Of a stretch of 64,000 bases of DNA, positions 9,061 to 21,700 are shown one piece after another (within the stretch, counting starts at the first letter, position 1; every line of letters starts with the position of its first letter). The notes beneath the pieces are model-generated. The model saw only the letters and a program-made list of their open reading frames with translations, was not told the DNA's origin and searched no databases. The translations under genes were made by a program, and so were the position numbers. The DNA comes from Haliotis cracherodii (Eukaryota), in NCBI RefSeq assembly GCF_022045235.1, contig NW_027266268.1, forward strand, positions 38,130,001 through 38,194,000, written 5' to 3'.

Positions 9061-9571
9061 ATAATATCAGTTTCCTATGAAGTTTAAAGTAGAACCTATA
9101 CTGCATCACCTGCTACGTCAAGGTTTCAGGACATACACAATGTGTACTCCATGAACCTAACTTTAGATTGATGTTAATCCCAAACGTAAACAAATTGCGA
9201 TTTACCGTGTGAATATTTTAGCATGCGCGCGTCGCTATAAAAGCGCAATTATCTGTTGATGTTAAACCCATTTCATCTTAAGGTGATGGTGTTTAACGCC
9301 GCGTTCAAACATGTGTGTGAGACTGCTTGTACTAGTCCGGATTTTATAGTTCTCGTTCACTGAAATACCATGCCGCAGTTTAACATGAATACCCCATTCA
9401 GACACCGTGACTCCGAACCAGTCCTTGTTTTAGCCCCTAAATACCCCGCGCCAGCCAGGGTAACAACAATTACCATCTTTTAACGTCTTTTGGTGGAGCG
9501 CACTCCGGGTTGACCTCTATCCACTACGTCACGGAGGCACTCTCACCTTACCAACAGGACGACTGAACGGG

Positions 9572-10201
9572 AGTAGTTTAGCACATCAGTGTAGAACCCC
9601 TCAGGATTCTGGAACCACTCAGGATTCTGGAACCAAGATGGCGGCACATCCGTTTCCGGTCACGTGACCTGCGCAGTGCATGATGGGACCCTGCGCGTGC
9701 CTCCAAGATGGCGTCGCTTCCGTTTCCGGTGGCGTGCGCCTCCAAGAGGGCGTCACTTCCGTGTCCGGTGGCGTGCGCCTCCAAGAGGGCGGCACTTCCG
9801 TGTCCGGAGGCGCACGCCTCCAAGAGGACGGCACTTCCGTGTCCGGTGGCGCACGCCTCCAAGATGGCGTTGCCTCCGTTTCCGGGGAGGAGTAGGGGAA
9901 AACCCGGAGAAGCGCCCGTCAAAGGTGAACGGGATCGACATGGAAAGAAGCGCGTCAAACATCGTTTGTGGTGGTGGTGGTGGTGGTTCTAAACATAGAC
10001 GGGGTGGCGGTGGTGAAGGGAGGGAGGGAGGGAGGGTGGTGGTGGTGGTGGTGGTAGTGGTGGTGGTGGTGAAGGGAGGAAGGGAGGGAGGGAGGGAGGA
10101 AAGGAGGAGGAGACGGGTTCATGGTGTGGGTTGGAGGGTCGTCAAAGCAAAGGAGGAAAGTTGTCTTTCGGGAGAGATGGGTGGCCCTGAAAAGGGCCGT
10201 T
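9572..10201 (+). repeat. Left TIR (630 bp)
   Basis: Reverse complement of 20913-21492; two CTCAGGATTCTGGAACCA repeats, five 39-bp units, (GGT)n/(GGGA)n tract. Confidence 0.95.
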
Positions 10202-10203
10202 GG
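10178..10203 (-). terminator. Histone-type 3' stem-loop followed by HDE-like GAAAGA (10164-10169)
   Basis: Minus strand reads CCAAC-GGCCCT-TTTC-AGGGCC-ACCCA; ~130 nt after the stop of the zinc-knuckle gene. Confidence 0.85.
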
Positions 10204-10331
10204 AAAACAAACTGGAAACTGGAAACTTGAAACGACAGGAAACGGCAGGAACACTGGAACACTGGAACACTGGAAAAACTGCAAACGATGGGACACTGGT
10301 AAAAAACAGTGGGGTAGCATGGGCCCATGCG

Positions 10332-10943
10332 TTAGTCACTTTGTTCAGATGATCTATCTTCTTCATCCTCTACTTCCATCTCATCCTCGGACTGAAGGTG
10401 TCGTCGGCGCTTTGAAGCGTGCTTTCTTGAGAGGCTTCTGACCCGTTTTCTTTTCTCTACAAGAGGTGTGATGCCCGCACGGAGTTGTGCGAGGCATTCT
10501 TTTAGGTCGAGGACATCGACGTGCACGTCTTCGATGAGATGAACCACTTGTGTCACGGGTGTCACGGGTGTCACGGGTGCCACGGATGCCACGGGTGTCG
10601 ACGTGGACGGTGTTGCTGATGTTTTCTTTCGACTGGGTTCTGGGCAATCTGCAGCGAAATGACCCAGGGCTTGACAGTTGTAACAGTGGTCCAGGCGATG
10701 GGGAGTCTTCTTTCGACTGGGTTCTGGGCAATCTGCAGCGAAATGACCCATGGCTTCACAGTTGTAACAGGGACCCAGGTTCCGATTCTCCTGCTTCTCT
10801 TGACTGTTCATCTTCAGACAGACATAGTGACGGTGACCTTGAGTGCCACACTCGAGGCATGTCACTTCAGGGCAGTACAGGTAACTGTGACTGTCGGTCT
10901 GGCACTTCCTACAACTGTATCGAACTGACATGATGGGTTTCAT
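10332..10943 (-). CDS. Four-CCHC zinc-knuckle protein (203 aa) with basic NLS-like and acidic tail
   Basis: Four CX2CX4HX4C motifs (CRKC..H..C, CLEC..H..C, two CYNC..GHFAADC); ATG at 10943 lies ~50 nt after TATAAAA (10997-10991). Confidence 0.85.
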   Translation of the reverse strand: MKPIMSVRYSCRKCQTDSHSYLYCPEVTCLECGTQGHRHYVCLKMNSQEKQENRNLGPCYNCEAMGHFAADCPEPSRKKTPHRLDHCYNCQALGHFAADCPEPSRKKTSATPSTSTPVASVAPVTPVTPVTQVVHLIEDVHVDVLDLKECLAQLRAGITPLVEKRKRVRSLSRKHASKRRRHLQSEDEMEVEDEEDRSSEQSD

Positions 10944-10989
10944 AGAATGCAGTGTGTGTGTGTGTGTGAGTGGCTTCGCTCTTGTTTTG

Positions 10990-11258
10990 TTTTTATAGGA
11001 GAGCCACTGACACCCTACCTCCTGATTGGTTCCCCAGGCAGCGCCCCCGATTGGTTCGTTTCGGGGCCTGGTCTGCACCTCGGTTTTCCAAAACGGACCG
11101 ACCCCTGTGTTTCTTTTCCATAGGAAATGGATTTTACCATGGGAGAGAAAGCACAACCCCGGTTCGACCATTCAGAGTCCCGCATGACCCGAGCACGGTC
11201 TCTGATTGGTTGACAACCCAGGCTTCGGATTGGTTCGATTTCGATCCGGTTTTTTTTT
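10990..11258 (-). promoter_or_regulatory. Promoter cassette copy 1 (four CCAAT boxes + TATAAAA)
   Basis: Homologous to 14066-14308, 18684-18985 and 20268-20581; lies directly upstream of the zinc-knuckle ORF. Confidence 0.8.
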
Positions 11259-11465
11259 ATCGGGGTGTGCATTTCGATCCGGTTTTGTTTTTTTCATCCT
11301 ACAGACCACAGAACACGACTATGGGTTTTTAAAACAAAATTTAATCCCCTCGCTCACATGAACCAACACCACAAAACAAAAAGTCACAGGATGAGGGGGG
11401 CGTCCCTGTGAATTTTGTGAACACGGGGGTATGAACGTCTGTACACTTTGAAAAAAGAAACTTTG

Positions 11466-19778: not shown

Positions 19779-19804
19779 AAAACGGCCCTTTTCAGGGCCA
19801 CCCA
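19779..19804 (+). terminator. Histone-type 3' stem-loop followed by HDE-like AAAAGA
   Basis: AAAAC-GGCCCT-TTTC-AGGGCC-ACCCA-TCTCACCC-AAAAGAC; internal copy outside the TIRs, downstream of IAP-2. Confidence 0.85.
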
Positions 19805-20267
19805 TCTCACCCAAAAGACAACTTTCCTCCTTTGCTTTGCCAACCCCACCCCCAATTTGAAAACACACACACACACAGGGCACGACGTTTGCATGGCAAC
19901 ACACAAAGTACATGACGTTCACATCGCGACACGAAGTCCATGACGTGTGCAAACTTAACGTCACGTAGGTGTATCGATCTTTCTCTATTCATCTCAATAC
20001 GACACTACTCAATACACACACACACAGGACACCACGTTTTGCCTGACCACACGCTATTCTATGCATCGTCTGTTTGAAGACATACACACACACACATACC
20101 CACACACACACACGCACACATGACATTCCGATTGGCATGGGAGTGACACACACGTACATAGGCATTCCCACGTTCATGTCTACCTATGAAGGTCCACCTT
20201 CCTTTAGCATTCAGACGACCGTCGACCTCAAAAAAAATATCAAGGCTACCCAAGAAGAAAAAAAAAC

Positions 20268-20581
20268 GGATCGAAATCGGACCAATCCGAAGCCTGGGTT
20301 ATCGACCAATCAGAAGCGGCGCTCGGGCCATGGCGGGCTCTGATTGGCCGAACCGGGGTTGTGCTTTCTCTCCCATGGTAAAATCCATTTCCTATGGAAA
20401 AGAAACACAGGGGTCGGTCCGTTTTGGAAAACCGAGGTGCTGACCAGGCCCCGGAACGAACCAATCGGAGCTGCGGCCTGGCGAACCAACCAGGAGGGAG
20501 GATGTCAGTACCACTCCTATAAAACAACAGTGGATTCGAGTGGGTCAGTGTCACTTGTAAAATTGATTCGAAAAATCAAGA
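20268..20581 (+). promoter_or_regulatory. Promoter cassette copy 4
   Basis: CCAAT boxes and TATAAAA (~20518-20524) upstream of the ATG at 20582. Confidence 0.8.
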
Positions 20582-20905
20582 ATGTCTGAAAACTGGGATC
20601 TGGAGCTAGCCTCAGTGGTGCACCCTTTGCCACTGTGCAAAGTGTGTCGCTCGGAGTTGGAGAAGAAAGAAGCAGTACCGCCATTGCCATTGCCTCCACC
20701 ATGGCAATGCGGTACATGCCAAGGGGGCCTGCCTGTGTACGCCCTTGGCACAAGGGCACGGGATGGTACATTTCAATGTGTGTACTGTAAGACCATCCTC
20801 AAGGACACCTACGTGCGGCGGTTAACGCACACCGGTAGGTGTCCTGTCAGGAGACAGATGAATGTCCACCCGTGCCTTTGCACCATGGCGTGCACATGCA
20901 TGTAA
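20582..20905 (+). CDS. Small Cys-rich putative zinc-binding protein (107 aa)
   Basis: CxxC pairs (CKVC, CGTC, CVYC) plus H..C; flanked by a promoter cassette and a histone stem-loop. Confidence 0.75.
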   Translation: MSENWDLELASVVHPLPLCKVCRSELEKKEAVPPLPLPPPWQCGTCQGGLPVYALGTRARDGTFQCVYCKTILKDTYVRRLTHTGRCPVRRQMNVHPCLCTMACTCM

Positions 20906-20910
20906 ACATC

Positions 20911-20936
20911 AAAACGGCCCTTTTCAGGGCCACCCA
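20911..20936 (+). terminator. Histone-type 3' stem-loop followed by HDE-like GAAAGA
   Basis: AAAAC-GGCCCT-TTTC-AGGGCC-ACCCA starting 5 nt after the TAA at 20903-20905; forms the inner edge of the right TIR. Confidence 0.85.
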
Positions 20937-21492
20937 TCTCTCCCGAAAGACAACTTTCCTCCTTTGCTTTGACGACCCTCCAACCCACACCATGAACCCG
21001 TCTCCTCCTCCTTTCCTCCCTCCCTCCCTCCCTCCCTCCCTTCACCACCACCACCACCACCACCACCACCACCCTCCCTCCCTTCACCACCGCCACCCCG
21101 TCTATGTTTAGAACCACCACCACCACCACCACCACAAACGATGTTTGACGCGCTTCTTTCCATGTCGATCCCGTTCACCTTTGACGGGTGCTTCTCCGGG
21201 TTTTCCCCTACTCCTCCCCGGAAACGGAGGCAACGCCCTCTTGGAGGCGTGCGCCACCGGACACGGAAGTGCCGTCCTCTTGGAGGCGCACGCCACCGGA
21301 CACGGAAGTGACGCCCTCTTGGAGGCGCACGCCACCAGAAACGGAAGCGACGCCATCTTGGAGGCACGCGCAGGGTCCCATCATGCACTGCGCAGGTCAC
21401 GTGACCGGAAACGGATGTGCCGCCATCTTGGTTCCAGAATCCTGAGTGGTTCCAGAATCCTGAGGGGTTCTACACTGATGTGCTTAACTACT
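20913..21492 (-). repeat. Right TIR (580 bp)
   Basis: Inverted copy of the left TIR with four instead of five 39-bp units and few substitutions. Confidence 0.95.
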
Positions 21493-21700
21493 AACGGGTA
21501 TGTAGTGACTCCTGGAAATACAATCAAGAATGTACTCGGTGATGCCCACACGTGCCACTGACTTCGTTTAGTCTTTGCTTCGTTGCCATTGACAACATGA
21601 CAAACTCATCAAAACATCTCCTGCCTTGCTGACACTACTGAGAAAGTGTATTGGGAAGAGCACTGATTTGCAGCGTCTTTGCTGCTCAAATATCTAAATA

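Follow-up and report, generated by a model that had tools for sequence, protein, structure and literature searches.

It is well supported that a Polinton family in the genome of the abalone Haliotis cracherodii is partitioned into two complementary, separately integrating segments, which are accompanied by satellites and by a series of fossil copies. The family was recognized from a stretch of 64,000 nucleotides (NCBI RefSeq assembly GCF_022045235.1, contig NW_027266268.1, positions 38,130,001 to 38,194,000, written G000:C5:38130001-38194000 in the notation used below), hereafter called the window, which contains at positions 9572-21492 an element of 11,921 bp beginning with AGTAGT and ending with ACTACT. 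This element is a copy of segment A, which carries the gene of a family B DNA polymerase (polB), whereas segment B carries the integrase, packaging ATPase, capsid and protease genes. The two segments probably constitute a bipartite Polinton and complement each other in trans. The complementary contents, the shared termini, the separate insertions each flanked by a 6-bp target site duplication (TSD), the lack of any joined copy among the recent copies examined, and the joined or intermediate layouts of older copies are all directly observed.

With its long terminal inverted repeats (TIRs), its AG...CT ends and its 6-bp TSD, the window element exhibits the terminal features of Polintons/Mavericks. 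As stated in the initial annotation of the window, both termini and the AACGGG duplication are intact, the two copies of AACGGG being located immediately outside the AGTAGT...ACTACT ends, and the duplication is not due to chance since 29 of the 33 other elements with both flanks in hand possess a perfect 6-bp TSD of their own. The two TIRs of the window element share 89% identity over 633 columns, the gaps between them resulting from different numbers of repeat units. In all copies, the terminal bases 7-24 (9578-9595 and 21469-21486 in the window) vary from element to element at fixed positions and are usually alike at both ends of one element, which suggests that the two TIRs are homogenised during replication.

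Autonomous Polintons are usually larger and encode an integrase, an ATPase, a protease and capsid proteins, their 6-bp TSDs being made by their integrase. The interior of the window element consists of polB, as initially annotated, and of six accessory open reading frames or ORFs (CCHC, BIR1, orf181, orf162, BIR2 and orf107) instead of the five previously counted. Pfam searches with 12 ORFs of the element recovered only DNA_pol_B_2, BIR (twice) and zf-CCHC. The reported absence of integrase, ATPase, protease and capsid genes holds for these 12 ORFs by Pfam, and for the whole element in tblastn searches with 11 queries representing ten segment-B proteins, none of which gave a match at E<=1. The window element thus displays the protein-primed PolB of Polintons/Mavericks (PF03175), even though the gene is broken in this copy, but neither their integrase (by Pfam, and by tblastn at E<=1 with the segment-B integrase as query) nor their ATPase, major and minor capsid proteins and protease; devoid of integrase, it is not by itself a Polinton according to the usual definition, whereas A plus B is. 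The polB gene of the window copy is disrupted by frame changes near 17697 and 16808 and by in-frame stops near 17957 and 15460, whereas 19 other copies possess a single frame of 1415-1422 aa. Exonuclease and polymerase motifs were found in an intact PolB copy.

Segment A is abundant and dispersed, the window element being one of about 45 recent copies that have its layout. A genome search with a C-terminal piece of PolB, in which 150 of 320 candidates were scored, yielded at least 160 matches, and 46 of the 145 places carried forward are at least 97% identical. Full A copies mostly measure 10.6-12.0 kb (about 11.3 kb), and dispersed copies bear differing TSDs, so that the single layout described in the window recurs at many independent sites. 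Among further polB copies fetched on both sides, all 16 display the A gene order (one of them without orf107) and none of the 16 carries a B gene. As side observations, a 2.9-kb part of polB is repeated in tandem some seven times in the A copy at C6:29623000-29648957 (L091-L093), which corresponds either to a real amplification or to an assembly artefact, and an 8.1-kb A derivative at C12:40462344-40470430 (L043), with orf107 at both ends and its own TSD, apparently arose by recombination between promoter modules.

Searching with the TIR for elements with the same ends leads to the partner, segment B, a separate element of 10-10.6 kb (about 10.3 kb) bounded by the TIRs of A and equipped with integrase, ATPase, capsid and protease frames. 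All frames run in one direction and encode, in order, the ATPase, proteins of 320, 109 and 324 aa, the integrase (425 aa), and proteins of 132, 348, 127, 442 and 192 aa. The ATPase belongs to Pox_A32; Pox_A32 and Chromo exceed the Pfam cut-offs, and rve, Peptidase_C5 and Capsid_N are weak matches below cut-off, the integrase combining the rve and chromodomain matches. The 442-aa protein was confirmed, at the level of its predicted structure (pLDDT 90.9, alignment of 83 sequences), as a double-jelly-roll capsid protein: the best PDB match of the model is the Sputnik virophage capsid (E 2.9e-17), and the double-jelly-roll capsids of an iridovirus, PBCV-1 and mavirus are matched as well. The 348-aa protein is a putative penton-like protein, from its position and size, and the 192-aa protein a putative protease-like protein. 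An intact PolB gave no match at E<=0.01 against 19 B loci; taken together, A and B comprise the full Polinton core (PolB, integrase, ATPase, capsids and protease). The CCHC frame resembles B over its first 70 residues, but this likeness was set aside, as it corresponds to shared promoter-like DNA and not to protein.

A third type of element, type C, consists of near-perfect palindromes built from the end of B (L097:156-9857, L094, L096, L056/L057, L048) and reaching up to 9.9 kb, the larger ones measuring 8.7-9.9 kb. These palindromes contain the TIR, tandem repeats, the shared promoter module and a gene for an 86-aa Cys-rich protein, which also occurs in B beside one TIR with 87-89% identity.

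A census of the family was based on 51 TIR-bounded elements, paired from TIR matches (100 of 107 listed in one search) and with eight ends estimated from an inner motif. Thirty-two of them belong to type A, with polB only, 11 to B and 8 to C. Neither among these 51 elements nor among the 16 further copies does a recent element combine polB with capsid genes, this count being taken in one assembly by searches that give lower bounds (candidates scored: polB 150/320, capsid 95/374, ATPase 150/513, integrase 147/1304). The B set comprises 9 independent insertions and one element without a capsid gene; the three B copies on C6 have a flank in common and represent one insertion, and two of them were excluded from the selection counts and from the terminal tree. 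For capsid matches of at least 97% identity, the nearest listed polB match is at least 478 kb away in 9 of 10 cases, the tenth having no polB match on its contig. With both flanks in hand, perfect 6-bp TSDs surround 13/14 A, 9/11 B and 7/8 C elements; the 4 misses out of 33 comprise two ends estimated from the inner motif, one extra terminal triplet at a right end and one case of inverted flanks. Perfect 6-bp TSDs thus mark all three types with the signature of an integrase, an enzyme encoded by B alone.

Several places that looked like joined copies were rejected. At C1:41910768, an A copy harbours a nested 4.9-kb element of another family, the ATPase of which is 34% identical; at C23:51504441, an old broken B lies 13 kb outside an A bounded by TIRs and TSD; at C6:29623000, the A copy with tandem repeats of part of polB was found; and at C78:60233009 / 60251166, an old A and an old B, each with its own TIR matches, are 13 kb apart. 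The nested 4.9-kb element (L038:255-5197, on C1) has inverted ends, a 6-bp TSD, an ATPase and one integrase frame in each arm; neither polB nor capsid was seen among its frames above 120 aa. Owing to the many similar ATPase and integrase matches in the genome searches, it looks like a separate multi-copy integrase-plus-ATPase family.

The termini, the selection pattern and the read depths link the segments further. A tree of 77 ends (48 from A, 18 from B and 11 from C) includes three sets of identical rows that cross segment types, and in none of the 200 bootstrap trees (0%) are the ends of A, B or C united in a single group. The type labels are more clustered than in shuffles because both ends of each element are included. 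With identical rows crossing types and no type forming one group, the termini must have been exchanged or co-homogenised among A, B and C. In polB, variants common to at least two copies number 26 nonsynonymous to 39 synonymous (omega 0.19, as against 0.40 for singletons); in the ten B genes, shared variants number 8 to 20 (hand-summed), with an omega of about 0.12 as against about 0.49 for singletons. At the level of codon changes, these shared variants show that A and B alike are under purifying selection, as would be predicted if neither gene set were dispensable. Two other DNA runs bearing the same species label span both interiors, at depths of 18.7 and 5.1 for A and 8.8 and 2.1 for B (A:B 2.1 and 2.4); the depths of A and B differ from each other and are even along the segments. 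No site where many molecules begin or end was seen in the read layouts, flanking repeats having swamped the joint tables in one of them. Contig set X9, guessed to be RNA and not used as evidence, spans the A interior and only 4 of 30 B bins.

Older copies indicate how the partition may have come about. A decayed copy at C4:41787798-41796182 contains polB followed, on the same strand, by the ATPase, 320-aa, 109-aa, integrase and penton-like genes, and another at C23:52506338-52511961 contains polB followed by the 324-aa, integrase, penton-like and capsid genes; one more joined copy is listed in Table 1. In other old copies of type A (C1:57358960-57367699 and C1:21696057-21701108), an ATPase gene is intercalated between orf181 and BIR1. 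DNA identity to the end of the window polB is 79-83% for the joined copies, 89% for one A copy with ATPase, 91-95% for old A copies without ATPase and 98-99% for recent A copies. It is likely, from this gradient of layouts, that the split proceeded stepwise from a joined form through A with ATPase to the present A. The joined state is probably ancestral, in view of canonical Polintons, of a one-piece element (family 2) of the same genome with the B gene order, and of protein accessions from the nearest relative, Haliotis asinina: there, 12 of the 15 listed accessions of the PolB cluster lie within 4 numbers of a capsid accession on an equal-length contig, a proxy that suggests an element in one piece. 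The same proxy gives 1 of 14 for the entries of H. cracherodii; for Haliotis rufescens it gives 0 of 15 listed PolB accessions near a capsid accession, a weak figure as two of the four capsid accessions come from an older series.

The following scheme is modelled on protein-primed replicons and on Polintons. The PolB of an intact A would prime at AGTAGT ends and copy any molecule so ended, whether A, B or C. The DDE-chromodomain integrase of B would insert all three types and make the 6-bp duplication, and the capsid module of B would package molecules of 8-12 kb. The two BIR proteins of A might hold off apoptosis, and type C may represent a mirror-image, snap-back-like parasite of the end of B. 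Because its own polB is dead, the window copy could move only with both proteins supplied in trans. It may be speculated that a packaging size is reflected in the comparable lengths of the three types, which are about 11.3 kb for A, about 10.3 kb for B and 8.7-9.9 kb for the larger C elements. A living, integrating double-stranded DNA (dsDNA) virus of the Polinton lineage, with two obligately complementary segments of ~11 kb in particles, snap-back satellites padded to a similar size and the split fossilised in the host, is a tentative extension, perhaps somewhat short of an even chance.

A number of observations weigh against the bipartite interpretation or against its details. All the genome evidence comes from a single assembly, in which a joined copy could have escaped because only part of the candidates were scored, although a young one should rank high. 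Among the old joined copies none is complete. The second A copy with ATPase is only 72% identical and basal to the joined copies, and starred branches number 2/14 for polB and 1/14 for the ATPase; with such low support and a basal A-with-ATPase copy, the order of the steps is a suggestion only. The TIR haplotypes common to the segments are evidence of exchange or co-replication, not of exclusive dependence. The selection counts were obtained from open-frame copies only, the B numbers are small, and the trend is reversed in zf-CCHC, where the shared variants among 27 copies comprise 24 nonsynonymous and 3 synonymous ones, which may result from positive selection or from an alignment artefact of its internal repeats. 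Moreover, the genome contains complete one-piece Polintons. In family 3 (C5:38849505-38871298, 21.8 kb), which is present in many copies, the frames of PolB, integrase, capsid, protease and ATPase are open, and with at least 18 capsid matches with open frames this family is a possible helper; family 2 (C4:10273012-10289517, 16.5 kb) is also complete. Protein identity is about 50% for family 2 and about 30% for family 3, each of which possesses one BIR gene.

These families lend some substance to the idea that A and B are separate parasites of unrelated one-piece Polintons which merely swap termini with each other, all the more as the termini of families 2 and 3 likewise begin with AGTAG. Beyond AGTAG(T), however, these termini give no match to the A/B TIR at E<=0.01, and A and B complement each other exactly, have a promoter-like module in common and go back to one joined ancestral lineage, which renders this explanation improbable. 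A hidden helper of the same family, residing outside the assembly as an exogenous virus, in an unassembled region or on the other haplotype, would turn A and B into two classes of defective derivatives. It draws on the old joined copies, on genome searches that are lower bounds and on butterflies, where mobile PolB-less Polintons are reported to live beside complete relatives (10.1101/2025.02.07.637071), but has to contend with 0/51 joined TIR pairs and 0/16 further joined copies, with joined copies just 79-83% identical in DNA to the current polB, with the old polB-ATPase junction, for which no second spanning copy was found (40 of 3722 candidates scored), and with purifying selection on the shared variants of both segments; it is an unlikely alternative, if a slightly better one than parasitism on families 2 and 3.

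The initial annotation took the window element for a satellite or linear-plasmid-like derivative moved in trans, or else for one part of a split genome, rather than for a random deletion, and this view is borne out in favor of the split genome, because the partner itself is without polB and no recent full-length member of the family was found. In this respect, complementary essential genes occur on segments with shared termini, as in segmented viruses, whereas the complete cognate helper with the same termini that would characterize a satellite is represented only by old, decayed and partial joined copies. That the window element is the isolated product of an ordinary deletion inside a full-length Polinton, or was created by misassembly, is hardly conceivable. 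The polB of the window copy is broken, and deleted or rearranged copies do exist in the family (C34:51471629, C12:40462344); yet, instead of a single copy derived from a full-length Polinton by one simple deletion, there are a same-ended partner and dozens of dispersed copies of the same layout with differing TSDs, 19 of which have an open polB of 1415-1422 aa. Independent DNA runs spanning A and B at different, even depths argue against an artefact, and the copy census has already refuted both possibilities.

The features of the window element are collected in Table 1. The promoter-like module, which comprises CCAAT boxes and a TATA-like box, occurs four times, in copies of 240-330 bp upstream of the genes of the element, and presumably acts as a promoter. 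Searches of the ESM Atlas gave no usable match for orf181 and orf162. Elsewhere in the window, the AT skew reaches about -0.41 at 23000-26000 and +0.40 at 53000-54000, probably owing to simple or tandem repeats.

Table 1. Features of the segment A copy in the window (window positions) and location of a further old joined copy.
Feature	Position	Strand	Remarks
TSD, left copy (AACGGG)	9566..9571	+	abuts the AGTAGT terminus
Left TIR	9572..10201	+	630 bp; AGTAGT start; 39-bp tandem units; common to segment B and type C
zf-CCHC zinc-knuckle gene	10332..10943	-	203 aa from the ATG after a TATA-like box; open frame begins upstream, at 11171
Promoter-like module 1	10991..11285	-	CCAAT boxes and TATA-like box; putative promoter
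BIR1, single-BIR inhibitor-of-apoptosis-like, 170 aa	11466..11978	-	PF00653, E 1.4e-20
ATPase-site interval	12038..12243	.	A32 ATPase gene in older decayed A-type copies; absent in the window
orf181, acidic, Cys-rich end	12756..13301	-	conserved in copies; no Pfam/Atlas match
orf162, basic, low-complexity	13363..13851	-	conserved in copies; no Pfam/Atlas match
Promoter-like module 2	14098..14335	-	directly downstream of polB
polB, protein-primed family B polymerase	14369..18602	-	PF03175; broken here
Promoter-like module 3	18678..19010	.	between the divergent polB and BIR2
BIR2, second single-BIR gene, 150 aa	19001..19453	+	PF00653, E 1.1e-22
Promoter-like module 4	20258..20591	+	
orf107, small, Cys-rich	20582..20905	+	conserved in copies; no Pfam match
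Right TIR	20913..21492	-	580 bp; ACTACT at end
TSD, right copy (AACGGG)	21493..21498	+	abuts the ACTACT terminus
Old joined copy	C34:52520799-52525623		

No description of a split Polinton was found in the literature searched, Repbase, supplements and most subscription papers being outside its scope, and none appears in the available parts of PMC12220804, 10.64898/2026.10.13.758929, PMC10748475, PMC8097293, PMC11161782 and PMC11131425. Polintons by definition encode a polymerase and an integrase (PMC5499653), a survey of nematodes required five core proteins within 20 kb (PMC10748475), and a survey of corals ascribed missing core genes to fragmentation, loss or divergence (PMC11131425). Since surveys select Polintons in one piece, a split family would escape them or pass for debris. 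For RNA viruses, a complete genome can, according to theory, be displaced by a pair of defective descendants that complement each other (PMC10223652). With the joined form, an intermediate, both segments and satellites in one host genome, the route to segmented genomes becomes open to direct study in a dsDNA lineage, and the family also provides a path by which a Polinton could become a polymerase replicon devoid of capsid genes.

Non-autonomous Polintons in Repbase are likewise bounded by TIRs and mobile without a core gene. The same holds for the PolB-lacking Polintons of butterflies, but in Pieris mannii complete polB-bearing relatives coexist with them (10.1101/2025.02.07.637071), whereas in the abalone each segment lacks what the other has, and no complete relative of recent age was found. 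With Polintons/Mavericks (Alpha-type adintoviruses; PMC8502044, PMC8097293), the abalone pair shares the PF03175 PolB, rve-chromo integrase, A32 ATPase, double-jelly-roll capsid, penton-like protein, adenain-like protease, long TIRs and 6-bp TSD; inhibitor-of-apoptosis accessory genes are also reported in adintoviruses. The two gene modules described in PMC8097293 reside inside one element, whereas the core genes of the abalone family are distributed over a pair of elements that have inserted separately and have the same termini. Transpovirons and linear plasmids (PMC11161782) resemble segment A as capsid-less linear replicons with a pPolB-type protein, but they are giant-virus-dependent or plasmids, whereas segment A becomes integrated, with a 6-bp TSD, and is matched by a cognate, same-ended partner with capsid and integrase. 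Bidnaviruses and the Drosophila Vesanto virus (PMC8502044, PMC8363768) similarly associate segments, a Polinton-derived PolB and matching segment termini. These are, however, single-stranded DNA (ssDNA), parvovirus-like viruses, for which the available text describes no integrase or double-jelly-roll capsid. The abalone pair differs from the Bidnaviridae, defined by ssDNA, a parvovirus-type capsid and NS proteins, in the double-jelly-roll capsid of its partner segment, and Pfam detects no parvovirus family on A or B; it keeps the whole Polinton module, and each of its segments integrates.

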